Positions 2,746-29,381 are shown, counted from the first letter of the stretch. The stretch is DNA of 64,000 bases from an uncultured Acidobacteriota bacterium (GCA_963738025.1 CAVTWA010000004.1:470042-534041); one strand, 5' to 3'. Numbers and translations are program-made. The notes: generated by a model not told the origin, from the sequence alone.

Positions 2746-3030
2746 ATGAAACTCATTACCAGATACCTGGGTTCTATTCTTGTGGCAGGAACACTACTGG
2801 TGCCGGTCGGAGCTATCGCTCAAGACCGCGATCACCCTCAAGACCAGACGCATCGTTACTACGACCGCGACCATAAGGACTATCACGAATGGTCCGATCG
2901 GGAAGACCACGCGTATCGAGAGTGGCTGCGGGAACAGCATCGGGATTATCGAGACTACTCCAAGCTGAGCCAGAAGCAACAACGCGCGTACTGGAACTGG
3001 CGGCATGAGCATCCGGAGCAGTTCCGGTAA
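2746..3030 (+). CDS. Small secreted R/D/H/Y/W-rich hypothetical protein
   Basis: Purine-rich RBS, signal peptide ending AIA-Q, and repeated YYDRDHKDYHEW-like segments. Confidence 0.75.
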   Translation: MKLITRYLGSILVAGTLLVPVGAIAQDRDHPQDQTHRYYDRDHKDYHEWSDREDHAYREWLREQHRDYRDYSKLSQKQQRAYWNWRHEHPEQFR

Positions 3031-3206: not shown

Positions 3207-3274
3207 CCGCCAAATGACTAATTCGGGAGAAATGGTCAATTCTCAATGGTCAATCGTCATTAGTCATTTGGCGG
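3207..3274. repeat. 16-bp inverted repeat with AATG(A/G)(C/T)(T/C)AAT short units, overlapping the 3' end of the 3264 gene
   Basis: ccgccaaatgactaat (3207-3222) pairs with attagtcatttggcgg (3259-3274); aatggtcaat occurs twice in between. Confidence 0.75.
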
Positions 3275-4254
3275 GTTTGAACAGTTTGTTGTAATCGACG
3301 TTGGCGTCGCAAACGAACTCTTCGACCCACTCCTCTTCGGGGCGGTAGGCAAACGTCCGGGTCGGGATGACCCAGGGACCGACCCACACGTTGGGATCTT
3401 CGACCGTCACGTCATATTGAAGACTACCGTTGTCGAGCCGTTTGAAATGCTCGACCACATGCAAATCCTGGGTGTGCATGAAGCCGTGGACTTCCGTCTT
3501 GTCGTTGAAGCCGATCGAGTCCACGACTAACGTGTCTCCTTCCCAGCGGCCAACGGCGTTGCCCATCCAGGTGGGGATCCGGATCGATAGCCTGCGGCCG
3601 GCCATCCAGCGGAATCATTCGTATCGCATTCGGATATTCGAATATCTGAACAATCAGCTTTGGCGTCTGAACGATCTGGAAGGGATACGGCGTGATGTAG
3701 GTTTGCGGGATCCCGAGCGGCTTGCAATCCGTGCCCAATGTCGTCCTGCCGCGAACGTCGTTCGGCCCGCGCACGATGACAAATTTTTCGGCGCCCGGTT
3801 TCACGGCTGGAGCCTTTGCGCCGGCGGGAAGTCCGGCAAAGTTGTAGACGCCGGTGAGATCGGGCTTTCCGTCCGGCATCCGGAAGTTTTTCGAATTCGC
3901 ATTGCCGGCCGAAGCTGGTACCGGCCTGGCGACGGGAGCACCGGCAACCGTCACCGTCACTGTTTTGGAGGGTCCGTTACGCAGCGACAGGGTGTACGTT
4001 GTCGTTGCAGCGGGCGTCACTTGCCTGCTTCCGCGGGGAATGACCGGCCCGACCTCCTGGTCGATGGAAACTCCCGACGGATTCTCCGTGCTCCACACCA
4101 GCAATGCAGACTCTCCAGGCCTGATCGAAGTCGGCCGCACCTCGAATGAAACGATGCGCGGTTCGGGAGCGGCGCCTCGGGCTCCCCTTCCCTGTTGCGC
4201 GAGAGCGGTTGAGGCAATCGCCATGCTAAGCATCAGGCTGAGTACAGTTTTCAC
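3264..4254 (-). CDS. Secreted protein: Ig-like domain plus conserved 'GKPDLSG...GRWEGDTLVVD...EFVC' domain; +1 frameshift near 3575
   Basis: GTG start at 4254 with GGAGGT RBS and a signal peptide. Removing one base from the G4 run at 3573-3576 restores DPDPTWMGNAVGRWEGDTLVVDS, collinear with the paralog at 4847-5851. Confidence 0.8.
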
Positions 4255-4414
4255 GGGACCTCCTGCAGTATTCGCGTACGTCGCGGCTGTTTCCTGTCGC
4301 ATCCAAGGTAAGTGGAAAGGACTATACGAAAACTCGTACCCTGTGGCAACATTGCTGTCGATTCAGGGAATCCATCCAAAAATTCGAGTTTGCATGGAAT
4401 ATCGGAGGCTAAAG

Positions 4415-4786
4415 ATGAAGTGGCAACTGGTGATCGTACTGGCAGCGTTTTGCCTGCTAATCAGCGTAGGCCCGGTGACTGCGCACCATTCGACGGCGAT
4501 GTACGACAACGAGCATCCGGTCACCGTCACGGGCATGGTGAAGAAATTCGATTGGACCAATCCGCACGCCTTCGTGTTCCTCGAAGTGAAAGATCAAAAG
4601 GGCAACGCGGTCGAGTGGGAAGTGGAAATGATGAGTCTGAATCATCTCCGGTCTTATGGCTGGACCAGTAAAACCGTGAAACCGGGCGACATGATTTCCT
4701 GCACCGGATCGCCGGCAAAAAGCGGTGCGCCCTCGATGATCAGCAATCGCATGAAGCTGGCGGACGGCCGAGAAATCAAATCGTAA
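4415..4786 (+). CDS. DUF6152-family secreted protein
   Basis: GGAGG RBS; signal peptide followed by HHSTAMYD; WTNPH and W.VEM motifs. Confidence 0.85.
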   Translation: MKWQLVIVLAAFCLLISVGPVTAHHSTAMYDNEHPVTVTGMVKKFDWTNPHAFVFLEVKDQKGNAVEWEVEMMSLNHLRSYGWTSKTVKPGDMISCTGSPAKSGAPSMISNRMKLADGREIKS

Positions 4787-4794
4787 AGGCAGGA

Positions 4795-4837
4795 ATTAGC
4801 CACGGATTGAACGGATTTAACGGATTCAAATCCGCGG
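4795..4837. repeat. Family-1 palindromic repeat, partial copy
   Basis: attagccacg-gattgaacg-gatttaacg-gattcaaatccgcgg. Confidence 0.8.
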
Positions 4838-4846
4838 GAGGTTTGC

Positions 4847-5851
4847 TTGAAAACCACAGTTATGCTGGTGTTGGCTTTTGCAGGTCTGAGCTCCGGACTG
4901 CAGGCGCAAGGCCGCGGAAACGCCAGGCCGCAGCCGGCGCCGCGCGTCGTCTCGTTTGAAGCGAAGCCGGCTTCGATCAAGCCTGGAGAAACGACGCAAT
5001 TGCTGTGGAGCACCGAGAATCCCACCGGGTTGACGATTGACCCTGGTATCGGGCCCGTCACGCCGCGCGGCAGCAGGCAGATCAAGCCCGCTGCCACGAC
5101 AACCTACACATTGAGCATGCGCGGACCGAACAACACGCCGATCACCAGCACAGTGACCGTCATGGTTGCGGGCACCACTGCGGTGAACGCGGTTGCCTCG
5201 GATCAGCCCGTTAACAAAGGGATCCCGCGAACTGCGGACGGCAAACCCGACTTTTCGGGCGTTTACGCGTTCGGCGGCGGTGGCCGTGGAGCCCGCGGCG
5301 GCGCGGGTGGCGGTCCCCAGTTGAAACCCGGCGCGGAGAAGTACAAGGTCGATCGCGGACCGCAGGATGTCGGACGAACTGCGGATTGCATGCCGCTCAG
5401 TCCTCCGGACGCGTTCGGGGTGCCGTATCAATTTCAGATCGTTCAGAACAAGGACACCCTTGTCCTGATGCATGAATATCCCGGAACTTTCCGCATTATT
5501 CCGCTCGATGGCGAACCGCATCAGCCCGATCCGGATCCGGCGTGGCTGGGCGACTCTGTCGGACGATGGGAAGGCGACACGCTGGTCGTCGATACCATCG
5601 GATACAACGACAAAACCGAAGTAAGCGGATTTAAACATTCCGACGCGCTTCATACCGTCGAACGCCTGACTCGCACCGAAGACGGCTTCCAGTACGAGGT
5701 GAAGATCGAGGATCCGGATGTTTTCGTCGCCCCCTGGACGGAGACCCGGACATACAAACTCAATGTTCCGCCGCTGAAACGGATCATGGAGTTCGTCTGC
5801 GAGAATAATCGCGATTACAAGCCGCTGTTCGGGGCAGACAAGAAGAATTAG
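4847..5851 (+). CDS. Secreted protein: Ig-like domain plus conserved 'GKPDFSG...GDSVGRWEGDTLVVD...EFVCENN' domain (intact paralog of 3264-4254)
   Basis: TTG start with GGGAGG RBS and a signal peptide. Ig-like segment SIKPGETTQLLWSTEN...TTTYTL; two conserved Cys; HSDALHTVER. Confidence 0.85.
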   Translation: MKTTVMLVLAFAGLSSGLQAQGRGNARPQPAPRVVSFEAKPASIKPGETTQLLWSTENPTGLTIDPGIGPVTPRGSRQIKPAATTTYTLSMRGPNNTPITSTVTVMVAGTTAVNAVASDQPVNKGIPRTADGKPDFSGVYAFGGGGRGARGGAGGGPQLKPGAEKYKVDRGPQDVGRTADCMPLSPPDAFGVPYQFQIVQNKDTLVLMHEYPGTFRIIPLDGEPHQPDPDPAWLGDSVGRWEGDTLVVDTIGYNDKTEVSGFKHSDALHTVERLTRTEDGFQYEVKIEDPDVFVAPWTETRTYKLNVPPLKRIMEFVCENNRDYKPLFGADKKN

Positions 5852-5854
5852 CGG

Positions 5855-6241
5855 GTGCAGCCCGTCATCGAGTCCATCCACCTGGTCGGCGTGGCGCTTC
5901 TGGTCGGCACGATCGCTCTGGTCGATCTTCGGCTTCTGGGGCTTGGACTTCGGCATTTGAAGCCTGTGTCCGTGGCCGCGACGCTGGCACCCTGGACCTG
6001 GGCTGGAGCGCTTACGGTCTTGATCACCGGTCCGCTACTGTTCTGGATGGACTCCACGCGATATCTGAAGAATCCAGCCTTTCTTTTGAAGATGGTCCTG
6101 CTGGGCGCCGCGGTTGTCACTCACTTCACAATTCACCGCTCCCATGCAGGACGCGAAAAGCTCGCCGCGGTGGTGTCGCTTGTGTTGTGGAGTTGTGTGG
6201 TGCTGGCCGGCCGGGCGATCGCGGACTTCGATGTTTATTAA
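5855..6241 (+). CDS. DUF6644-family membrane protein
   Basis: ESIHLVG, DLRLLG and AFLLKM motifs; four hydrophobic segments. Confidence 0.75.
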   Translation: MQPVIESIHLVGVALLVGTIALVDLRLLGLGLRHLKPVSVAATLAPWTWAGALTVLITGPLLFWMDSTRYLKNPAFLLKMVLLGAAVVTHFTIHRSHAGREKLAAVVSLVLWSCVVLAGRAIADFDVY

Positions 6242-6271
6242 TTCGTTCAATTCGTTCAATTCGTGGCTTAT
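6237..6271. repeat. Family-1 palindromic repeat, right half
   Basis: attaattcgttcaattcgttcaattcgtggcttat; contains the TAA of the upstream gene. Confidence 0.8.
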
Positions 6272-6280
6272 TCTGCCTCC

Positions 6281-6649
6281 GTGAATCTAAGCCAGATCAT
6301 CAGCCACTCGATATGGGGATACCCCATCGTGAGCGCGCTTCATGTGCTCGGCATGGCTCTGTTTGGCGGGACCGTGCTTGTCACCGATCTGCGCCTCCTG
6401 GGAGTCACGACCGAATTACGGGGCTGGCGATGGATCGGCTTCATGGTCGTGGCACTCACGGGAGTGCTTCTGTTCGTCTCCAGCCCCGTCCGCTATTGGG
6501 CCAGCGCCTTCTTCCGACTGAAGATGTTGCTGCTGATCCTGCTGGGCGTCATTGCCCTGCTCTTTCCGCGGGCGCGGTTTGCCGCATATCTCTCGCTGAC
6601 GCTGTGGATCGCGGTCATCTTTGCGTCCCGCGGTATCGCCTTCTTCTGA
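6281..6649 (+). CDS. DUF6644-family membrane protein
   Basis: YPIVSALHVLG, DLRLLG and FFRLKM motifs. GTG at 6281 preferred because the 6263 start lies inside the repeat. Confidence 0.75.
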   Translation: MNLSQIISHSIWGYPIVSALHVLGMALFGGTVLVTDLRLLGVTTELRGWRWIGFMVVALTGVLLFVSSPVRYWASAFFRLKMLLLILLGVIALLFPRARFAAYLSLTLWIAVIFASRGIAFF

Positions 6650-6694
6650 TATGCTGCGCGGCAAATTTGCATGCAGAGGTAAAGGAACGCGTCA

Positions 6695-7192
6695 ATGATG
6701 GATGTTTTGCTCAAAATCCAGGAGAGCGGTTTTTCCCAATGGGTGCGCGAATCCGAATCGCTCTTCGCTTTCGCCGGCATTCTCCTTGTTCATACGATCG
6801 GAATGGGCTTCGTCGTCGGCGTGAATGCCACCATGGATATCCGGATCCTGGGGTTCGCTCCGGCAGTACGTCTCTCGGCCCTGCAAAAGTTCTTTCCCGT
6901 TTTATGGCTCGGCTTCTGGATGAATGCGATCACCGGAACCATTCTGCTGGGCGCAGACGCCGTCAACAAAATGAGGAATCCGGATTTCTACGTGAAGATG
7001 GTCTTCATTGCGCTTGCCATCGTGAATCTTCGAATGCTGAATAAACAGGTATTTCAGGACCCGCTGATCGATAAGGTCCCTCCTTCGGCGCGAGCGAAAA
7101 TCCTCGCCGTCACCTCGCTGTTGTTCTGGCTGGGTGCGATCACGTCGGGACGGTTGCTCGCCTATGTTGGTCCCGGAAGCGGAGTGAAATAG
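6695..7192 (+). CDS. DUF6644-family membrane protein
   Basis: S.FSQWVRES, VHTIGMG, DIRILG, FYVKM and GRLLAY motifs. Confidence 0.8.
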   Translation: MMDVLLKIQESGFSQWVRESESLFAFAGILLVHTIGMGFVVGVNATMDIRILGFAPAVRLSALQKFFPVLWLGFWMNAITGTILLGADAVNKMRNPDFYVKMVFIALAIVNLRMLNKQVFQDPLIDKVPPSARAKILAVTSLLFWLGAITSGRLLAYVGPGSGVK

Positions 7193-7200
7193 GAGAGCCG

Positions 7201-8133
7201 ATGAATTCTGTTCATATCCATCTCTTATTGAATCACTTTCCAACGATCGGGTTCTGTATCGGGCTCGCCTTGTTCGTCATCGCGCTGCTGCGAAGGAGTC
7301 TAGACCTGCAGCAGGCAGGCCTGGTGATCTTCTTTGTGACGGCAGCTTTGACCATCGCCACGTATGTCAGCGGAAACGATGCACAGGAAATGATTCGAGA
7401 TTCGGGCAACTTTCCGGAATCTCTCGTGAAAGCGCACGAAAGCGCTGCGCTGATCGCATTCGTGTTCATGCAGGCGACAGGCTTTTTCGCATGGCTCGGC
7501 TTATGGATGATGCGGCGGCTGTCGCGGATCGCGAATTGGAATCTGGCAATCGTTCTGCTCCTCGCGCTCGTCACCTTTGGTCTGATGGCGCGGGCCGCCG
7601 ATTTGGGCGGTGAAATCCAGCACACCGAGATTCAGAATGGACCGGCGATCCCACCGGACGCAGATCGTCCGACATTGGCGCGGTCCTGGGCCGTTTTCGT
7701 GGAGAATAACTCCTGGGTCTGGCCGACCTGTGAAACAGTCCATTTCATAGGTCTCTCGATGCTGTTCGGCGTGGTGTTAACACTGGATTTGCGAATGCTC
7801 GGTGTCGGCAAAAACGCCCTATCTTTTGCTGCGCTTTATCAATTGCTGCCGCTGGGCATGCTGGGATTCACGATGAATCTCATAACCGGCATGATGTTTT
7901 TCGTCGCAATGCCCAAACAGTACACGGGTTTTCTGTTTTTTTTGAAAATGATGCTGGTGGTGTTCGGCGCTCTCAACGTCCTTTATTTCATGTTGTGTAA
8001 AGAACCATGGACGGTCACCGAAGGAGATGACGCTGGAATACTGACAAAGCTCGTCGCCGCCTCGGCGATCGTCATCTGGATTGCCGTTTTGTTCTGTGGC
8101 CACATGCTGCCCTGGCTCGGCAATTCGTTTTAA
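7201..8133 (+). CDS. Fused membrane protein: His-rich DUF2231-like N-domain plus DUF6644 C-domain
   Basis: N-half has HIHLLLNHFP, AHESAA and GGEIQHTEI. C-half has WPTCETVHFIG, DLRMLG and FFLKM. Confidence 0.7.
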   Translation: MNSVHIHLLLNHFPTIGFCIGLALFVIALLRRSLDLQQAGLVIFFVTAALTIATYVSGNDAQEMIRDSGNFPESLVKAHESAALIAFVFMQATGFFAWLGLWMMRRLSRIANWNLAIVLLLALVTFGLMARAADLGGEIQHTEIQNGPAIPPDADRPTLARSWAVFVENNSWVWPTCETVHFIGLSMLFGVVLTLDLRMLGVGKNALSFAALYQLLPLGMLGFTMNLITGMMFFVAMPKQYTGFLFFLKMMLVVFGALNVLYFMLCKEPWTVTEGDDAGILTKLVAASAIVIWIAVLFCGHMLPWLGNSF

Positions 8134-8143
8134 GATTTTCAAG

Positions 8144-8818
8144 ATGTTTCCCGATGTTACTCCTGCCGTTCGTGCGGATCTTGCCCCCACGGGCAAGCTG
8201 CGTGCAGGCATCAATTACGGCAACTTCGTCCTTGCTGCAAAAGATCCCGGGACAGGTGAACCGCGGGGTATCGCGCCGGAATTGGCCCGGGGAATCGCCG
8301 CGCGCCTGGATGTTTCCGTGGAGTTCGTCACTTTCGAAACTGCCGGGCACATGGCGGACGCAGTGAAAACCGGGGCATGGGACATCGCATTCCTCGCCAA
8401 CGAGCCGGAACGCGCCAGTGAAATTCTGTTCACGCCGCCGTACCTGGAAATCGAAGCCGGTTATCTGGTGCCTCCGGGATCTCCCATTCAAGATGTTGCG
8501 GAAGTGGACAGCCCCGGTATCCGCATTGGTATCGCGACGAAAAGCGCCTACGACTTGTTTCTGACCCGCGCGCTTCGCCACGCGATGCTGTTGCGAGCGA
8601 CCGGGATGGCGGGTTCGTACGCTCTGTTCGTCAACGACAGACTCGATGCGCTCGCGGGAATAAAGCCATGGCTGGCCATGATGGTCGAGAAGATCCCGGG
8701 ATCACGCATGCTCGACGGCCGCTTCATGGCGGTACAACAGTGCATCGGCACGCCCCGCGGCCGGGATGCCGGCGCCAGGTTCCTCAACGAATTCGTGGAA
8801 GAAACGCGGCGGCGGTAA
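8144..8818 (+). CDS. Type-2 periplasmic-binding-fold substrate-binding protein (amino-acid ABC type), no signal peptide
   Basis: DLAPTGKLRAGINYGN, WDIAFLA..PERA and KSAYDLFLTR motifs. Confidence 0.8.
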   Translation: MFPDVTPAVRADLAPTGKLRAGINYGNFVLAAKDPGTGEPRGIAPELARGIAARLDVSVEFVTFETAGHMADAVKTGAWDIAFLANEPERASEILFTPPYLEIEAGYLVPPGSPIQDVAEVDSPGIRIGIATKSAYDLFLTRALRHAMLLRATGMAGSYALFVNDRLDALAGIKPWLAMMVEKIPGSRMLDGRFMAVQQCIGTPRGRDAGARFLNEFVEETRRR

Positions 8819-8825
8819 ACACGCC

Positions 8826-9638
8826 TTAGCCAAACTGATAACCTGAAATTCGCAGACCGACGATCGTGCCGTTAAAGGGAACAGTTCCGCGGTCCGCTCC
8901 GGCGGCTCCGGCAATTACCATCAACGGGATCAAATGATCTTCCCGAGGCTGCGCGATCCGCGCCGCAGGCGCGGCGGTCCACTGCGCCAGCCTTTCATTG
9001 CGTTGTTGTTCATCGAGCGTTATCGCTTCACGCAGCCAGCCATCGAACGCTTCGGCGGCAGGGGCGGCCTGAGGCGTGAAAGCTCGCAAGTTATGAAACG
9101 TCATGCCGCTGCCGATGATGAACACGCCTTCATCGCGGAGCGGTGAAAGCGCACGACCGATCGCGATGTGTTCTTTCGCATCGAGTCCCCGTTTCATGGA
9201 CAGCTGAATTGCGGGAACGTCCGCGTCAGGATAGGTCAGCTTCAGCGGCACGAATGTGCCGTGATCGAAGCCACGGTTCGGGTCCTCGGCCGTTTTGAAA
9301 CCTGCCTCGTCGAGCAGTTCGCGCACACGGGCCCCGAGAGCGGGATCCCCAGGCGCCGGCCATGAGATCTTGTACGATTCCGGCGGAAAGCCGTAGTAGT
9401 CGTACAGCATGGGCGGATGCGGGGACGTCATCACGGTGGGAGCCGATTCTTCCCAATGGCCCGATATCACCAGCAGTGCGCGCGGGTTCTTTTTCGGCAC
9501 CGTCCGGATGGAGCGCAAATACTCGGCCAGTCGCTTGAGTTCTCCGGGTTCGCCAAAGGGTGTATCGATGAACGGCCAGGGTCCCCCGCCATGCGGCACA
9601 AAGACGACCGGCATGCGATCAGGATGATGTGTGTGCAT
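8826..9638 (-). CDS. Class III extradiol ring-cleavage dioxygenase (LigB/DODA/YgiD family)
   Basis: HGGGP, ISGHWE, YDYYGFP, RGFDHG and GSGMTFHNL motifs. Confidence 0.9.
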   Translation of the reverse strand: MHTHHPDRMPVVFVPHGGGPWPFIDTPFGEPGELKRLAEYLRSIRTVPKKNPRALLVISGHWEESAPTVMTSPHPPMLYDYYGFPPESYKISWPAPGDPALGARVRELLDEAGFKTAEDPNRGFDHGTFVPLKLTYPDADVPAIQLSMKRGLDAKEHIAIGRALSPLRDEGVFIIGSGMTFHNLRAFTPQAAPAAEAFDGWLREAITLDEQQRNERLAQWTAAPAARIAQPREDHLIPLMVIAGAAGADRGTVPFNGTIVGLRISGYQFG

Positions 9639-11386: not shown

Positions 11387-14300
11387 GTGAGGAGATGCTC
11401 ATTTTTTGCAGCGCTGCTGCTATGCGTCTGTTTCTCTGTACCAACGTTTGCGCAATCCACCTATGCAACAGTGAGTGGAACCGTTGAAGATGCCAGCCGC
11501 GCGTTACTTCCCGGAGTAAGTGTAACGGCGACGAATAATGCAACCGGCGTGGTTTCCAACGTCGTTACCAATGAGTCGGGCGCGTACAACATGACCACCC
11601 TGCTGCCCGGCACATATACGGTTAAGGCCGAGTTGCCTGGATTTCAAACCAAGACGTTTACAGACGTCGAACTTGGGAATGCCGCAAAAGTCCGGTTGAA
11701 CTTTTCGCTACAGGTTGCAGGGCAATCACAATCTGTGGAAGTCACAGTGGCCGCGGATACATTGCTGGCTGCCTCGAGTTCTTCAATCGGCGAAGTTTTG
11801 TCGCAAAAGAAGGTGGAAGACCTGCCGATTGTCGGAAACAATGTTCTCAGTTTCTTTACCTTAATGCCCGGCGTGCGTATGAATGATGACGGCGTGACCG
11901 GAACCTTCGCCGGGCTTTCGGCGGATAAAATCAACGTCCAGCGAGATGGCATCGATGCCAGTGCTTCCGCCCGTTACGTGCAGGCCGGAGCGCAGACCGC
12001 CACATTCGTGAATCCCGATCTCGTCGGAGAGATTCGCATCATTATGGCGCCCGTCGATGCGGAACTTGGGCGAGGTAATGGTCAAGTTCAATTTCTGACT
12101 CGTTCGGGAACCAACCAGATTCGAGGAGTGGAGTATGGTATGCCCGAAATAGCGGGCTGGACGCAAATAACTGGCTCAACAACAGAGCAGTCGATCCCAA
12201 AACGGGTGCCTGGAAACCCACAAAGCCGGATTGGAATAATACACACGAATTCACGGGGAATGTCGGCGGTCCCCTCATCAAGAGCAAGACTTTCTTTTTT
12301 ACACTCTTCGACGACGTTCTGGTCCGCGCTCGTACCCTTCAAAATCCTATCGTTCTGACTCCATGTGCAAGGAATGGAATTTTCCGATACTTTGATGGTT
12401 GGAACAACGGGAACGCGATCGCTCCTGTTCAACCGACGGGCGGGACACCGACCATTCCTGTAGTGGACGGACTAGGCAATCCACTCACGCCCGCAACGAA
12501 CCCCAACGGTGCGCCGTTCAGCGGCAGCCTCCGTTATGCGAGCGTCTTTGGCAAACTCCCGGCCGCTATGCCTGCGGCGAACTCGGATTGTTCCAACCTT
12601 GCCGCTCTCGTACAGTCCGGCACGAACTGGGATACCTACCGCAAGGGTTTGGATTCGACTGGATACGTCACCAAACTGATGGGCAAGATGCCGACGCCAA
12701 ACAACTACGAAGTCGGTGATGGACTGAACACTGCAGGATATAAATGGACTCGCAACGAGAACAACGGCACAGAGAACATTTTCGGATACAACGGGAACCT
12801 TGCTCGAAAACAGATAAACCTGAAGGTCGATCATAACTTTGACGCGCGAAACAAGCTAGGTGTGGCTTACACCTATGAGCAATCCAGCGGCAATGCCAAC
12901 TACGCAACCTGGCCTGGAGGTTTCCAGGGCGAAGTTTTCCGGAAACCCCAGACGCTGTCCGCCAATTTTGTTTCGACCATCACACCGACGCTCGTGAATG
13001 AAGCACGCATGGGCATGCGCCGCACCGGTTCAAACACCTATAACGCGCTGAACATTCCAGGAAGCAGTGGTAAGGACGCCCAGGCGTTTCTTCCGAATTA
13101 CTCAGGCTACCCGGTAATGTTAGCGCTGGGAGCGGGAGCAACGAATTTCCAGGCGAATCAGATTATCGGCGGCGGGAGCACCAGTTCGTACCTGGACACG
13201 ACTGTGCTGTGGACGCTTGGCGATTCATTGAGTTTGACGAAAGGCAAACACGCGTTCAAGATCGGCGGCGAAATTCGGAGAGGACACTCGCTCGGATTTG
13301 ACGCAGGGATCGCCCCCACAACCATTCCACGAGCCACCGGCGGCGAAACCGGACTGGCGTCTATCTCTGCGACGGCCATCAGCAGCACAAATATGACTGG
13401 ACTGGCCGGCACTAGCGCAAGTGGCAATAACGCTTCCATGCGAAACCTTCTGGACTTTCTCGCTGGCTCTCTCGCTAGCGTCACGCAACTCCAATTCATG
13501 GAGAGTCCCACGAAACTTTCGGGGTATGAAGACTACAAGACCTTCCCCTGGAGGACTCGAGACTTCCATGGCAATGAAGGAAGTATCTTCTTCAAGGACG
13601 ACTATAAAGTGCGGAGCACTCTCACGCTGAACTTGGGATTACGCTGGGACTACTATGGTGTCCCGTATGAAACTCATGGCTTGATGCCGGCCACGGTCGG
13701 TGGCCCCGGAGCAATCTGGGGCGTATCGGGCTCGGGGTTTTCGGATTGGATGAAGCCCGGCATTCGCGGTTCAAACACATCCATCGCTTATTTCGGCAAA
13801 GGTTCGCCGAATTCCGGCACGCCATGGTACGAGAATGATTACAACAATTTTGGTCCCGCTGTCGGTTTTGCATGGCAGGTTCCCTGGTTTGGAATGGGCA
13901 AGACTACAATTCGGGGAGGCTACCAGATCACATATCAAATCGGACAATCGGGGAATAACATATTCCAGGAAAATGCCGTTCCCGGCAGCACGAACAATAT
14001 CACTTATGCGGGAGATAGTCTCAATCCCTACATCGACCTGACAAGTGTGTCGTCCCTGGTCCCTGTGCCGACAACGCAGCTGCCGATGCAACCAGTCCCC
14101 ACCACAGATCGTTCACAGCAGGTGTACAACCCGGAAAAGGGCATCGTGACGCCGTACACACAGAATCTGACATTGGCAATAACACGAAGCCTCAGCTCCA
14201 ATTTGACCCTTGATGTACGTTACGTGGGCACACTATCTCGAAAGCAATGGAATCCGGTGTTGAACATCAATATACCGAATTTCCTTTATAACGGGTTGAA

Positions 14301-15561
14301 GGATGCATTCGATGCCGTACGTGCCGGCGATGATCTCAATCCTAAGGCGCAAGTTCTGGAAAGCATGTTCAAAGGAATCAATATCGCCGGAACTGGATTC
14401 GGGCCAGTCGGTACAACGGTCAATGGGGTTCTGCAGACGGCCGGTTTGCACTTGCGAAACTCGACAGCGTCCTGCGGAGTCGGCTGCACCATCCAATCTG
14501 CACTTGCTAACGGTACTTATTCTTCTCTTGCGAGCGCGCTCAATACCCTGAACTACAGCAGCCAATTTAACCCTACGCTGCCGGTAATTCCAGCTGGTGT
14601 GAACGGCGGTGTCATGAGAGTCAACGGATTCCCTGAAAACTTCATCGTCGCAAACCCACAATTTGGCAACGTCAACATCATTACCAACGACTTCAGTACG
14701 AACTATCACTCCCTTGAAGCGCAGGTGACCATGCGCCCGACCCAAGGCGTGACCATGCAGTCGACATACACATGGAGCAAGAACTTTGGCGTCGGCGGAC
14801 CATTCGGACTCGGCCCCACCTACACAAACCCAGTCAACCGGCACGCGGATTACTCTCTACAAACGGACACTCGAGTTCACGATTTCCGGACGAACGGAAC
14901 GTTTGCGCTTCCAATCGGACCAAACAAAGCATTCCTGGGCAAGACGTCGGGCACGTTGGCGCGGGTAATTGAAGGTTGGCAAACCGGGTGGGTCGTCAAT
15001 GTGAACACAGGAGCACCGACGACAATTACGGCCAACAATTCGCTGTATGCCAACGGCAGGCCTGACGTCGTCGGTCCATTCCCCGTCAAAGATGCCCATG
15101 TGACATTCGCAGGAACAGGGGCGGCCACCGGCTCTTACTGGAAACCGGGGACGTTCGGAACGGTGAAGGACCCTCAATGCTTAAACTCAGCGGTGGTGGC
15201 TCCGGGTCTCCAGTCCGCGTGTACGCTCAATGCAATTACCGACGCGAAAACAGGTCAAGTTCTGATTCAGAACGCCCTGCCCGGAGCGGTCCCGACGATG
15301 GGTCTCGGCTCAATTATCGGACCCGGCCGATGGCGTTTTGACGCCAACCTGAGTAAGGCGATTCGGTTATCTGAATCGAAAGGTCTGCAGTTCAGGCTCG
15401 ACGCTTCAGACATCTTGAACCATCCCGAGCCGAACGCTCCAACACTCAATATAACGGGCGCGAACGCCGCTAATTTCGGCCTGATGACGACAAGTGGAAC
15501 AACAGGAGCAAAGACGAACCTACACCGCATGCTTCAGGCGCAGTTGCGGTTTAGTTTCTAG
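11387..15561 (+). CDS. TonB-dependent receptor (Oar-like, N-terminal carboxypeptidase-regulatory-like domain); -1 frameshift near 12126
   Basis: Signal peptide, then SGTVED...TNESGAY...PGTYTVKAELPGF and TRSGTN. The shifted frame gives SGVWYARNSGLDANNW and joins the 12463-15561 ORF, which has TLNLGLRWDY, DYNNFGPAVGFAW and C-terminal QAQLRFSF. Confidence 0.88.
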
Positions 15562-27960: not shown

Positions 27961-28970
27961 CTACTGCTGGCGCAGCAGGACGGGTTCGCCGAAGTCGTCT
28001 TTCAGGTGATTCAGGTACTGATTATTCCCCTGGCAGATGTATTCGATCAGTTCGCCCGTCGCATTCCATGGAATGTCCCAGGCAACGGACCAGGGTTTGG
28101 TGTAAGCGCCCGGATCGTCGATGAGAGCTTCGTAGTGCAACGTGCCTTTGTTCGGACGCGTATAGCGTTCGACTACGTGCAGTTGCTCGGTATGCGGATG
28201 TCCGAAGTAATCGAGGGTCGTGCCTTCATTGAAGCCAACGATATCGACGACGAGCGTCTGACCGTTGTCTTCATAGTGGCCAACCGAGTGGCCCATCCAC
28301 AGATGGGAGCCGTCAAAGCTGCGAGACCCCGGATGAGGACGTCCGTCCATGTAGATCTCGCGCCAGCACATGCGTCCCGCCTTCATAAACGATGAAAATA
28401 CGCTTTTCCGACGGAATCTGGATGATCTCTGCCGGGTAGGGCGTCGCAAACATGCGCGGGCCGCCCGGAGGAGTACACATGCTTTCCGGATCGTATTTGG
28501 TTTCATTCATCGAATGATAGTTGTAGACCGCAGCAGCCCAGGGTTTGAAGGGGACCCATGGCTCGGATGGAGCTCCGCCACGCTGACCGCCGCCACCGCC
28601 TCCTCCACCGCCGCCACGCTGGGCAGCAGCGCCGGGAGCCGGAGCTGGGGCAGCAGGCGCTCCGACGACAATGTTTCTGGCGCCCATATTGGTAATGTAG
28701 GGCAGATTCCAGATTCCCTTTTCACCAGCCTCACGACCGAAATTCACGGTGCCGTCAGGCAATTTCGAGGCGGGCTGGCTCAACAGAGGGTTCGCCCCGG
28801 CCACCGCCGCGGCCACCACGGCCGCCGCCACCGCGTGCTCCACCTTCAGCACCTGCAGCGCCTGCAGCAGGCGCGGGCGCCTGTTGGCTGAGCGCAACAA
28901 GAGTCATTGCGACGAGCCAGAGAGCGCCGGCGCAAAAAACAAAAAACCGGCCAAGTAAACGCTTACGCAC
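27961..28970 (-). CDS. Secreted protein of the same conserved family as 4847-5851 (no Ig domain); frameshifts near 28794 and 28367
   Basis: AGGAGG RBS and GTG at 28970. The three frames join to give a signal peptide, a Gly/Arg linker, LPDGTVNF, CTPPGGPR, HVWREIYMDGRPHP, WMGHSVGHYE..TLVVD, HPHTEQLHVVER and EYICQGNN. Confidence 0.75.
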
Positions 28971-28982
28971 GATCAAGCCTCC

Positions 28983-29381
28983 TTACGGGTTGGTACCTTC
29001 GCTCGAAGCGGCACTCAACTTCTTGCCGTTGACAAGAATGTTGCGCGCGTTGCCACGATTCGTTCCGTCCTTCGCGCGGGTGCCTTCGATGGTGACAACC
29101 ATTCCGACTTTCATGGTGTCCCGAGTCCAGCCCTGGCGAACCAACGCGACGGGATTACCCGTTTCGAAGCCCCAGTTCTCCGTTTTACCGGTCTGGGGAT
29201 CTTTCACGTCGATGTAGAACCAGCTGTGGGGGTTCGTCCATTCAATCTTGGTTACTGTTCCAGTGAAATTTACAGGTTTTGATGCATCGAACTCTGCAGA
29301 AAATGAATGATGTGCGAGCACAGGCACTGCTGCCATAACGAGCAATACGAGGCTGGCGGCGACAACGTTCAACTTGGTCAT
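28983..29381 (-). CDS. DUF6152-family secreted protein
   Basis: Signal peptide followed by HHSFSAEFD; EWTNPHSW motif. Confidence 0.88.
   Translation of the reverse strand: MTKLNVVAASLVLLVMAAVPVLAHHSFSAEFDASKPVNFTGTVTKIEWTNPHSWFYIDVKDPQTGKTENWGFETGNPVALVRQGWTRDTMKVGMVVTIEGTRAKDGTNRGNARNILVNGKKLSAASSEGTNP

Follow-up and report, generated by a model that had tools for sequence, protein, structure and literature searches.

A cluster of seven envelope genes in the genome of an uncultured Acidobacteriota soil bacterium is best read as a CopC/CopD-like copper hand-off system built on new scaffolds, a reading to which we assign a probability of roughly 45%. The cluster hints at a copper (or electron) relay between periplasm and inner membrane that has not been studied so far. 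All seven genes of the original prediction, which had been made from the sequence alone, were found with the coordinates it had given in the window, i.e. the whole stretch of 64,000 nucleotides that was analysed (Table 1). A tight run of seven ORFs on the plus strand, with gaps of 3–60 bp (60, 3, 21, 45 and 8 bp in order from the DUF6152 gene to m4), follows one divergent secreted paralogue in window order. An SBP_bac_3-like ORF begins 7 bp 3' of m4 on the same strand and may be co-transcribed with it. This ORF is apparently no conserved member of the module and lies outside the finding; in most related loci the gene directly following m4 encodes an m3-like partner.

Table 1. Features of the cluster, in positions of the window.
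Feature	Position	Strand	Description
Secreted partner-family paralogue A	3264..~4254	-	Signal peptide, Ig-like N-terminal region, C-terminal partner domain
DUF6152 protein, 123 aa	4415..4786	+	PF19649
Secreted partner-family paralogue B, 334 aa, intact	4847..5851	+	Signal peptide, Ig-like N-terminal region, partner domain
DUF6644 membrane protein m1, 128 aa, 4 TM	5855..6241	+	First half of type I pair
DUF6644-like membrane protein m2, 128 aa, 4 TM	6263..6649	+	Second half of type I pair
DUF6644-like membrane protein m3, 165 aa, 4 TM, N-terminal amphipathic segment	6695..7192	+	Type II pair with m4
m4, 310 aa, 8 TM	7201..8133	+	N-terminal DUF2231/Mpo1-like four-helix bundle, C-terminal DUF6644 domain
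SBP_bac_3-like ORF	8141..8818	+	PF00497, E 3.6e-13; last of the seven-ORF run

The DUF6152 gene carries a GGAGG motif 6 nt ahead of its ATG. Its product clearly exceeded the gathering score of PF19649 (96.9 bits vs a cut-off of 27), and no other Pfam family matched it at E<=0.01. The sequence reads GPVTA/HHSTAMYD (slash, predicted cleavage site) and further downstream WTNPH. Cleavage of the signal peptide at this site, which we infer from the conserved small residue at position -1 and the hydrophobic leader, would expose His1 and leave a mature protein of 100 aa opening with His-His-Ser. The His-His-Ser sequence and the distal NPH motif had both been noted in the original prediction, and both are present. 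The same pattern extends through the organism's own 9.1 Mb genome, where 105 matches to the family were detected: HH occupies the expected mature start at 95 of 99 loci, far above chance, with Ala (90), Ser (3) or Gly (2) at position -1, and NPH follows downstream in 91 of these 95. In two full-length copies HH and the NPH histidine are both lost. Residues H1, N26-P27-H28 and E48 were invariant in 36 sequences, and the His-His of the mature end together with the NPH histidine and the glutamate constitute a candidate metal site. Cu(I) sites are usually Met-rich, and the window protein, with 7 Met per 100 residues, is the most Met-rich of the 95 own-genome copies (mean 2.1%). Of its 23 orthologues, 21–23 share the Met at five positions where it is mostly missing from 13 paralogues; these Met may form an extra Cu(I) site in this orthologue group.

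The original prediction had drawn a parallel with the copper histidine brace of CopC and LPMOs. As to fold, the parallel fails: DUF6152 was modelled with a pLDDT of 93.5 as an OB fold, and the matches listed for the model were OB folds only (LysRS anticodon-binding domain and SSB with a Foldseek E of 1e-4; SSB with Z 9.3). A CopC/LPMO-type beta-sandwich, Ig-like or cupredoxin-like, was not supported by this model. No OB fold is known to bear a histidine brace. With the histidine-brace proteins (LPMOs, CopC) and with DUF4198, DUF6702, Ang-1 and Ang-2, DUF6152 would share an invariant His just after the signal peptide, here predicted, and a second conserved His elsewhere; it differs from histidine-brace proteins in having an OB fold instead of an Ig-like or beta-sandwich one, and two consecutive N-terminal His. 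Another likeness is found in CusF, a periplasmic Cu(I)/Ag(I) chaperone made of a small OB-fold-type barrel with an internal His/Met/Met/Trp site. DUF6152 is likewise a small periplasmic protein of OB-fold type and is Met-rich in the window orthologue group; the CusF site does not involve the N-terminus. CusF was absent among the 50 structural matches listed for DUF6152, which excludes nothing. No paper naming DUF6152 or DUF6644 was found by full-text search, and the Pfam entries PF19649 and PF20349 carry no function. Ang-1 and Ang-2 are described in PMC12537917 as copper-binding domains with an N-terminal His that are attached to permeases of the membrane; the main text of that paper mentions neither DUF6152 nor OB folds nor CopD; its supplementary files may list further families.

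DUF6152 shows genetic coupling to a second secreted protein, the as yet unnamed partner. The partner family is represented by 116 loci in the own genome; 60 of 98 DUF6152 loci have one of them at a distance of up to 500 bp, and in 10 ORFs DUF6152 is fused to the partner domain. Paralogue B displays the partner-domain motifs C181, GxWEGDTLVV, DP and C318, and did not match any sequence in Pfam, NCBIfam or PDB. Paralogue A is spread over two overlapping ORFs in different frames (3424..4302 and 3264..3605), which align to paralogue B at 50% and 56% identity, respectively. The frame break corresponds to one extra C in the C run at 3573-3576; contigs bridging it from two related metagenome runs (X3 and X4) omit one base at 3573. 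From the alignment to paralogue B, the start of paralogue A is probably the GTG at 4254. Two Cys and an H-x4-H motif are present in both paralogues, as anticipated. Among 64 own-genome members of the family, conservation is 98% and 97% for the two Cys and only 62% and 72% for the two His of the motif.

The four membrane proteins were confirmed to share the helix-1 His, DLRxLG and FxxKM in all four DUF6644 domains. Their scores against PF20349 (gathering cut-off 27 bits) are all marginal, m1 lying above the cut-off with 27.6 bits and m4 (24.9) and m2 (17.6) below it; m3 has no Pfam match at E<=0.01. At E<=1 all four domains match, m3 with all 18 members of the set A1. Across 125 diverse members of the DUF6644 family, one His, one Gly and one Lys never vary. 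They correspond to H9, G59 and K79 in m1; m2 aligns with the family and retains H, R, G and K; and in m3 H33, G81, K101 and G152-R153 are invariant in 36 orthologues. The four domains form two types of pairs, m1/m2 (type I) and m3/m4 (type II). A gene for an m3-like partner adjoins that of m4 at 75 of the 80 related loci surveyed; tandem-fused DUF6644 forms also occur. These observations support the proposed hetero-oligomeric membrane module made of unlike halves.

The largest protein, m4, has 1872 homologues, the best 120 of which are 281-316 aa long. Its model shows eight long helices (pLDDT 85.5, pTM 0.85). Residues H7, H12, H79, H141, E143, E178, H181 and K249 are invariant, as is G300 in a C-G-H-M motif at positions 299-302, where C299, H301 and M302 are kept in at least 90%; this set of residues is predicted to face the periplasm. 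The fusion of its DUF6644 domain to a His-rich N-terminal half, as predicted, is real, but assignment of that half to DUF2231 (PF09990) did not stand, the score of 19.9 bits being below the cut-off of 26.4. Among 36 m4 orthologues, 14 matched DUF2231 (best E 2.5e-6) and 12 the Mpo1-like family PF06127 (best E 1.6e-4), a family of membrane Fe-dioxygenases; the sequence of this half is best described as showing a resemblance only to DUF2231/Mpo1-like proteins. Counts of K+R charges placed four segments of m4 (N-terminus, loop 2, linker and C-terminus) outside, and the DUF6644 His, Lys and Gly-Arg, like all invariant His of m4, on the periplasmic side.

The original prediction had likened the intramembrane His of DUF6644 to those of cytochrome b and CopD, and the likeness to CopD is supported by a remote alignment. 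An hhalign comparison of 125 DUF6644 with 7 CopD sequences brought the His, Thr-Gly and Lys into register over 113 columns with E 1e-4 and a probability of 57.8%, which is no secure hhalign value; the same register was obtained with A1 (14.5%) and with the m4 family (5.8%). When E. coli YebZ was added, the DUF6644 His, Gly and Lys columns coincided with H154, G205 and K230 of YebZ. None of the four window membrane proteins matched CopD PF05425 (cut-off 32.1 bits), against which the best own-genome DUF6644 copy scored 21.6 bits. Sub-threshold Pfam matches of the 125 members were to DUF2214 (53), CopD (9) and UPF0093/HemJ (4), and m1 also matched DUF2214 with 22.4 bits. The second conserved His of YebZ, H135, follows helix 4 of an eight-helix chain. 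In m4, H141 is invariant just after helix 4; the N-terminal halves of m4 and CopD did not align, nor did any equivalent of H135, and m1 to m3 consist of four helices only. HemJ binds haem b via its helix-1 His. Like HemJ/UPF0093 (PF03653) and DUF2214 (PF09980), DUF6644 has four helices and a helix-1 His, with cross-matches below the cut-offs; no genome of a phylum sample of 41 matched HemJ above its cut-off. DUF6644 proteins are predicted to be remote, half-size relatives of CopD with the His on the periplasmic side of helix 1. YebZ imports copper, its H154A variant abolishes uptake, and both of its conserved His are situated close to the periplasm (PMC11923076).

The arrangement recalls CopC/CopD systems (YobA-YebZ-YebY in E. 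coli; the CopC-CopD fusion YcnJ with YcnI in B. subtilis) in that a periplasmic protein with His at its mature start, predicted in the case of DUF6152, is paired with a membrane protein composed of four-helix units. Among CopD proteins, four-helix forms account for about 35% and fusions with CopC for about 9%, and some have cytochrome c domains (PMC11923076); four-helix short forms, fusions to a periplasmic part and fusions to cytochrome c are likewise seen for DUF6644. Unlike CopC, the periplasmic part is an OB fold, accompanied by a second secreted partner and present in about 100 copies. Unlike CopD, the membrane part is divided between the unlike members of each pair, and m4 carries the DUF2231/Mpo1-like bundle replacing the N-terminal half of CopD. 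A CopC-family partner is absent from the window module, where DUF6152 takes its place. The CopC match of the own genome is found elsewhere, on contig C67, beside a weak CopD match; the window module is therefore not required to fill a gap.

Coupling of the periplasmic and membrane parts, as put forward in the original prediction, was upheld by the survey of gene neighbourhoods. Of 80 related loci, 49 have a DUF6152 gene within 3 kb of the m4-type (DUF2231-DUF6644) gene, and 65 have DUF6152 or its partner at a distance of up to 5 kb. The density of DUF6152 in these loci decreases about 8-fold, from 1.44 per 10 kb at 0-2.5 kb from m4 to 0.18 at 5-10 kb. In the own genome, four of eight DUF6644 pairs have a DUF6152 gene no more than 2 kb away, where about 0.4 would be expected (binomial P ~3e-4). 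Five contigs are apparently common to the lists of m4 and DUF6152 orthologues. A single metagenomic record (P0250) combines a signal peptide, HH-DUF6152 and DUF6644 in one protein, mirroring CopC-CopD fusions and following the same logic as the permease tether of Ang-1 and Ang-2 (PMC12537917). The view of one single system needs correction, however, as DUF6152 and its partner form a family of about 100 copies of which a minority stands beside DUF6644 genes: only 8 of 98 own-genome DUF6152 loci have one within 5 kb. Conversely, 15 of the 80 related loci lack both DUF6152 and partner within 5 kb, six of them with full flanks of 9–10 kb.

Complex modelling of DUF6152 with the membrane pair passed weakly. 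The prediction of m4 and m3 with DUF6152 scored 0.32 (runs 0.40, 0.32 and 0.29) against 0.00 for the best control, the runs sharing at least 83% of contacts with a partner pLDDT of at least 82. Of 80 solved complexes 58 attained the mark applied, as did 2 of 110 mismatched pairs; with a score of 0.60 or less, just 7 of the 80 solved cases attained it, together with both mismatched pairs. The model lends weak support to a docking of DUF6152 on m3/m4.

The main rival reading, judged less likely, is a role in electron transfer. Here the DUF6644 pair would hold a redox cofactor between its two helix-1 His, e.g. a bis-His haem b with the propionates bound by the invariant Lys and Arg, the DUF2231-like bundle would form a second centre, and the quinone pool would be linked to periplasmic redox proteins. 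The latter would be c-type cytochromes, or else DUF6152 and its partner; these two would form a copper-dependent oxidoreductase or monooxygenase in which the partner domain holds small substrates. A single invariant His in each four-helix unit and obligatory pairing fit this arrangement, as do the weak HemJ and Mpo1-like matches mentioned above. At some of the loci without DUF6152 and partner, c-type cytochromes stand beside m4 in their place. Six loci (L050, L066, L067, L079, L095 and L097) have a gene for RC-type di-haem cytochrome c (PF02276) at most 325 bp from m4, and at L057 a cytochrome b/c fusion (PF00033 and PF00034) and an RC-type cytochrome c are inserted between m4 and the m3-like partner. 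ORFs with at least two CxxCH motifs occur within 3.5 kb in 5 of the 15 loci lacking DUF6152 and partner vs 6 of the other 65 (Fisher P 0.028). The protein P0191, from a cluster of 19 members of several sources, joins two DUF6644 domains to a C-terminal cytochrome c'-like domain with CESCH. Given the cytochrome neighbours and this fusion, electron transfer fits equally well; CopD, however, is also found fused to cytochrome c domains (PMC11923076), so that such neighbours do not discriminate. The about 100-fold expansion would suit enzymes better than chaperones, and so would the enrichment near PQQ dehydrogenases (18 of 57 loci vs 8.9 expected). Structural matches of the N-terminal bundle of m4 to the haem four-helix proteins cytochrome b561 (Z 10.3), CybB (Z 10.3) and CcmF (Z 11.8) are all in the non-specific range, and Foldseek gave no significant match. 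With all invariant His of m4 on the periplasmic side, a transmembrane two-haem wire is not evident, and the closest family of tested function is CopD, in which the aligned His serves copper uptake.

It is improbable that the periplasmic pair (ligand-binding or hydrolytic, with a structural or zinc-type site) and the membrane pairs (acting in transport, signalling or assembly) are functionally separate and merely share envelope gene islands: the few DUF6152 loci near DUF6644, the four own-genome pairs and 15 related loci without the periplasmic pair, the single fusion record, the weak docking score and the 15.7% of the own genome lying within 6 kb of a DUF6152/partner locus, where an enrichment of about 2-fold is seen for other envelope families too, speak for it, but against it stand the steep rise of DUF6152 density beside m4 within the same loci, the co-stranded, closely spaced window genes and a DUF6152 orthologue group that accompanies m4 orthologues and is marked by a conserved set of Met not shared with other groups.

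The copper hand-off is favoured by the N-terminal His site, the CopD relation, the function of YebZ, the topology, the neighbourhood, the fusion, the Met and C-G-H-M residues and the weak complex score. It is weakened by the copy numbers of DUF6152 and partner, far beyond the need for a metal chaperone, by the remoteness of the CopD relation, by a fold not known for histidine braces, by the CopC match elsewhere in the genome, by the merely weak pass of the complex model, and by the loci without DUF6152 or partner together with the c-type cytochromes beside m4 at some of them. In the proposed mechanism, signal peptidase would expose His1 of DUF6152, which would bind copper and dock from the periplasm on m3/m4 and/or m1/m2. 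The docking face would bear His, Glu and Lys as well as the Cys-Gly-His-Met motif, and the ion would be passed on to be imported or inserted into envelope enzymes. The domain of the secreted partner would probably bind a ligand or substrate, giving each of the about 100 paralogous pairs its specificity. If true, the cluster would represent the logic of CopC/CopD built from different parts, with an OB-fold carrier and split membrane pairs.

The gene content originally predicted for positions 3264..8133 was found as described by ORF calling and Pfam searches. A secreted protein (paralogue A) is encoded on the minus strand, followed on the plus strand by DUF6152, a second secreted protein (paralogue B) and four membrane ORFs (m1 to m4). 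Along the plus strand, the gaps from DUF6152 to m4 measure 60, 3, 21, 45 and 8 bp. The next ORF, similar to SBP_bac_3 and without evident signal peptide, may be co-transcribed with the module. None of the eight ORFs gave a match in NCBIfam, and a promoter and terminator scan of the region remained at background level. Two further genes flank the region. On the minus strand, a LigB-family extradiol dioxygenase gene (8826-9638) beside the membrane module converges on the SBP_bac_3-like ORF, and in a related locus (L091:4861-5706, +) the gene immediately upstream of m4 is likewise of the LigB family. The other gene (2746-3030, +) immediately precedes the cluster and encodes a small secreted protein of 94 aa with a very high content of His, Asp, Arg, Tyr and Glu (…DRDHPQDQTHRYYDRDHKDYHEW…). 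This protein, unmatched in Pfam, is a possible metal binder.

Positions and domain matches of the module and the adjoining ORF in the window
Feature	Position	Strand	Evidence or remark
Secreted paralogue A	3264..~4254	-	ORF calls
DUF6152	4415..4786	+	Pfam 96.9 bits (cut-off 27)
Secreted paralogue B	4847..5851	+	
m1	5855..6241	+	DUF6644, 27.6 bits (cut-off 27)
m2	6263..6649	+	DUF6644, 17.6 bits, below cut-off 27
m3	6695..7192	+	DUF6644, none at E ≤ 0.01
m4	7201..8133	+	DUF6644, 24.9 bits (cut-off 27); N-terminal half DUF2231, 19.9 bits (cut-off 26.4)
SBP_bac_3-like ORF	8141-8818	+	Starts 7 bp past m4

Paralogue A consists of two overlapping ORFs in different frames, each of which aligns to paralogue B, and the frame break sits in a CCCC run at 3573-3576. 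Contigs from two related metagenome runs of soil and rhizosphere (X3 and X4) bridge this site. Both X3 record 11 (spanning 3415-3692) and X4 record 19 (spanning 3382-3619) omit exactly one base at 3573, which indicates an intact gene in relatives. Two further genes of the window are split in the same manner. One is the partner gene downstream of a second DUF6152 copy (28986-29381, -; …PVLA↓HHSFSAEFD…WTNPH), which spans 27964-28903 (-) in the overlapping frames 28316-28903 and 27964-28506. The other encodes a large CarboxypepD_reg/TonB-receptor-like outer-membrane protein (11387-15561, +) in the frames 11387-12358 and 12463-15561, the latter being open far upstream of its first start codon. This third split gene suggests assembly indel errors. 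An assembly indel is thus the simplest reading of the break in paralogue A, which may alternatively mark a recent pseudogene.

Best-hit typing sorts the four membrane ORFs into two pairs of different type. Type I (m1-like with m2-like) was found in the window and in the own-genome loci L013, L014, L015 and L016, and type II (m3-like with an eight-helix m4-like fusion) in the window, L017, L018 and L021. The 17 own-genome matches to PF20349 (DUF6644) occur mostly as adjacent pairs, two weak matches being unpaired. The first-helix histidine originally noted in all four DUF6644 domains was borne out, as H, R, G and K are invariant in eighteen own-genome domains. Among 125 diverse members, H9, G59 and K79 are invariant, and D24, R26, G119 and R120 are kept in at least 90%. 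A profile search retrieved 9241 representative clusters (50% identity) at E ≤ 0.001, including tandem-fused forms such as P0122, which represents 61 near-identical members. For m4, 1872 homologues were obtained among 8000 candidates scored, the best 120 of which measure 281-316 aa. In 36 sequences of this family, H7, N11, H12, P14, Y55, H79, H141, E143, E178, H181, R198, K249 and G300 are invariant and C299, H301 and M302 nearly so. Judged by Lys and Arg counts over the alignments, loops 1 and 3 of DUF6644 lie inside and the N-terminus, loop 2 and the C-terminus outside. The invariant His, Glu and Lys residues and the C-G-H-M motif are therefore all predicted to face the periplasm.

The structure model of m4 has eight long helices (pLDDT 85.5, pTM 0.85). 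Foldseek returned no match for it at E ≤ 0.001, and a wide structural search gave generic, non-specific four-helix bundles (Z up to 13.5) that barely covered the C-terminal half. No match to m4 was obtained in a PDB sequence search. Its N-terminal half shows weak likeness to DUF2231 in 14 of 36 orthologues and to Mpo1-like membrane dioxygenases in 12 of 36; literature searches on DUF2231 gave nothing relevant.

Sub-threshold Pfam matches of the 125 DUF6644 members pointed to DUF2214 (53), CopD (9) and UPF0093/HemJ (4). An alignment of seven CopD proteins taken from a phylum sample showed an invariant helix-1 His, the Gly of a Thr-Gly and a Lys, which is the DUF6644 pattern. Using hhalign, the 125-member alignment matched these CopD proteins over 113 columns with His, Gly and Lys in register (probability 57.8%, E 1e-4). 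The identical register was obtained, though less probably, from smaller alignments (14.5%; 5.8% for the m4 family). When E. coli YebZ was included, the columns invariant in CopD corresponded to H154, G163, G205, L227 and K230. In the available sections of PMC11923076, YebZ is described as a copper importer in which H154A abolishes and H135A reduces uptake. Both residues lie close to the periplasmic side, and a multimer model places the copper site of YobA, the periplasmic partner of YebZ, at most 5 Å from H135. The same sections class about 35% of CopD proteins as truncated, with four helices, and give the share bearing a CopC domain as about 9%; cytochrome c domains are present in some. The truncated forms are there stated to keep the first of the two His, whereas the short forms in our alignment keep the H154 column. 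HemJ had no match over the cut-off in the 41 genomes sampled (0/41), and no paper joining HemJ, CopD and heme was found in the literature searched. Elsewhere in the genome carrying the window, a CopC match in two different frames (38.2 and 25.3 bits) lies beside a weak CopD match of 19.8 bits (L012, G000:C67:572790-573974) and may represent a frameshifted CopC-CopD gene.

The strongest signal is given by the N-terminal histidines of DUF6152. His-His occurs at the expected mature start in 95 of 99 own-genome loci, preceded by Ala (90), Ser (3) or Gly (2), and in 91 of these 95 an NPH motif is found 20-45 residues further on. Two of the four exceptions are truncated matches; the other two are full-length and have lost the NPH histidine as well (QH...NPY and QRS...NPS). 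Numbered from the predicted mature His1, the residues H1, A5, G17, N26, P27, H28, E48, G59 and G68 are invariant among 13 paralogues and 22 orthologues. The mature protein was modelled as an OB fold (pLDDT 93.5). The best Foldseek hits of this model were anticodon-binding domains of lysyl-tRNA synthetases and the SSB Rim1 (E ~1e-4, TM ~0.6), and the 50 matches listed in a wide structural search were all OB-fold proteins (SSB: Z 9.3, rmsd 3.0, 80 aligned). CopC and LPMOs differ in fold from this model, so that the histidine-brace likeness originally proposed holds for the N-terminal His motif and does not extend to the fold. The DUF6152 of the window is the most Met-rich of the 95 own-genome copies (7% versus a mean of 2.1%), and its orthologue group shares five conserved Met positions, mostly missing from paralogues. 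Periplasmic Cu(I) proteins typically have Met-rich sites. In the literature searched, no paper ties a histidine brace to a periplasmic OB fold, and none names DUF6152 or DUF6644. Neither family is mentioned in the main-text parts of PMC12537917, on signal-strapping of N-terminal-His metalloproteins, that were covered.

DUF6152 had been pictured as part of one system; it is not a single-copy gene and belongs to a huge paralogue family. The own genome (9.15 Mb, 75 contigs, 96% complete, 6.6% contamination) contains 105 matches to PF19649, and tblastn resolved, after merging, 98 loci of DUF6152 and 116 of the secreted partner family of paralogues A and B. A partner gene lies within 500 bp of 60 of the 98 loci and within 3 kb of 71. 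Among the 60, both genes share a strand with DUF6152 upstream in 34 cases and with the partner upstream in 22, and are on opposite strands in four; ten ORFs are fusions of both domains. Of the motifs assigned to the secreted paralogues, the Cys pair is well kept in 64 own-genome members (98% and 97%), while conservation of the H-x4-H histidines is lower (62% and 72%). Pfam returned nothing for the partner domain in 28 sequences at E ≤ 1, and a protein Atlas search gave only unnamed clusters. PDB sequence searches with paralogue B, DUF6152 and the partner-domain profile yielded chance-level rows only. A search for longer fused DUF6152 relatives gave two proteins, neither with an informative domain. 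The same genome contains about 57 PQQ-dehydrogenase-like and 76 TonB-receptor-like loci, of which 18 (8.9 expected) and 21 (11.9 expected), respectively, lie no more than 6 kb from a DUF6152 or partner locus. Both were rejected as specific partners, the enrichment being only about two-fold.

Linkage between the periplasmic and membrane parts was surveyed by scanning reference genomes with the m4 alignment, and genes were assigned with HMMs built from our alignments. The scan gave 488 relatives, and the best 80 of the 488 loci, all from Acidobacteriota MAGs, were analysed; owing to the m4 query, the survey covers type II pairs in Acidobacteriota only. An m3-like partner adjoins m4 in 75 of the 80 loci (16 upstream, 59 downstream) and is missing in five. 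The expected co-occurrence of the families elsewhere was recovered, with DUF6152 within 3 kb of the m4-type gene in 49/80 loci. Within 5 kb, the partner domain was present in 59/80 and either of the two in 65/80. DUF6152 domains reach a density of 1.44 per 10 kb in the 2.5 kb nearest the unit, compared with 0.18 at 5-10 kb. The remaining 15 loci, six of them with full flanks, have neither. In the own genome, excluding a duplicate contig and the two unpaired weak matches, four of eight DUF6644 pairs have a DUF6152 gene at most 2 kb away (~0.4 expected, P ~3e-4). Comparison of the m4 and DUF6152 orthologue lists suggests that five contigs are common to both. Among 27 longer DUF6644 representatives scanned, the single record P0250 combines a signal peptide, an HH-started DUF6152 and DUF6644 in one chain.

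Complex prediction of m4 and m3 with DUF6152 scored 0.32 (runs 0.40, 0.32 and 0.29; best control 0.00), with at least 83% contact agreement between runs and a pLDDT of at least 82 for DUF6152. In calibration, 58 of 80 solved complexes and two of 110 mismatched pairs reached this mark; with scores of 0.60 or under, only seven of the 80 and both mismatches did. The predicted complex lends weak support to docking. About 4 kb from the m4/m3 pair of one related locus (L075:15296-16648, +) lies a HupE/UreJ_2 permease gene with a long N-terminal extension; this family bears 'anglerase' N-terminal-His domains according to the available parts of PMC12537917.

Overall, the observations of the original prediction were confirmed, and its interpretation was upheld as far as linked periplasmic and membrane parts are concerned. 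Our preferred reading, held at a probability of about 45%, is that the cluster works like CopC/CopD. The His-tipped OB-fold DUF6152, together with its partner, would serve split CopD-like membrane units, and the ion would probably be copper. A simple chaperone role is disfavoured by some 100 paralogous pairs, too many for a chaperone, by the presence of a DUF6644 gene within 5 kb of only 8 of 98 DUF6152 loci, and by the CopC match beside a weak CopD match on contig C67.

A serious rival, somewhat unlikely in our estimate, is that the membrane pairs transfer electrons by way of a haem or metal centre. In loci devoid of DUF6152 and partner, m4 often has a c-type cytochrome gene as its neighbour. 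ORFs with at least two CxxCH motifs within 3.5 kb occur in 5/15 such loci versus 6/65 others (Fisher P 0.028). RC-type di-haem cytochromes (PF02276) lie at most 325 bp from m4 in L050, L066, L067, L079, L095 and L097. In L057 (10001-15304), a cytochrome b/c fusion (615 aa, PF00033 and PF00034) and an RC-type di-haem cytochrome c (384 aa) are inserted between m4 and the m3-like gene. Protein P0191, representing 19 members from several sources, has a cytochrome c'-like domain (25.1 bits versus 26.5) behind two DUF6644 domains, with CESCH near the C-terminus. These neighbours and P0191 fit a membrane unit exchanging electrons with periplasmic redox proteins. A CopD-like importer would also account for them, given the CopD-cytochrome fusions described in the available sections of PMC11923076.

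Under a more novel reading, which we regard as rather improbable, DUF6152 and its partner would constitute a very large, so far undescribed class of copper enzymes in the periplasm. The N-terminal His-His metal site on the OB fold would close over a substrate-holding partner domain, and electrons would come from the quinone pool via DUF6644/DUF2231 units or c-type cytochromes. Mere co-location of periplasmic and membrane genes is less likely than either the CopC/CopD-like reading or electron transfer, and was considered improbable.

All three families, DUF6152, DUF6644 and the unnamed partner, are large, with 105 DUF6152 matches in the own genome, 9241 DUF6644 clusters and, for the DUF2231-DUF6644 protein, 488 relatives in reference genomes. 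The alternation of DUF6152 and c-type cytochromes beside one membrane unit poses the question whether metal or electrons are handled, and the alignment of the DUF6644 His with His154 of YebZ makes an anonymous family directly testable. If the copper-enzyme reading were true, about 100 pairs per genome would provide a toolbox with which varied small organic substrates could be oxidised in soil and sea. If the CopC/CopD-like reading is right, the OB fold would be added to the scaffolds holding metal by an N-terminal histidine, and abundant soil Acidobacteriota would possess a second, CopC-independent route of copper acquisition or delivery.
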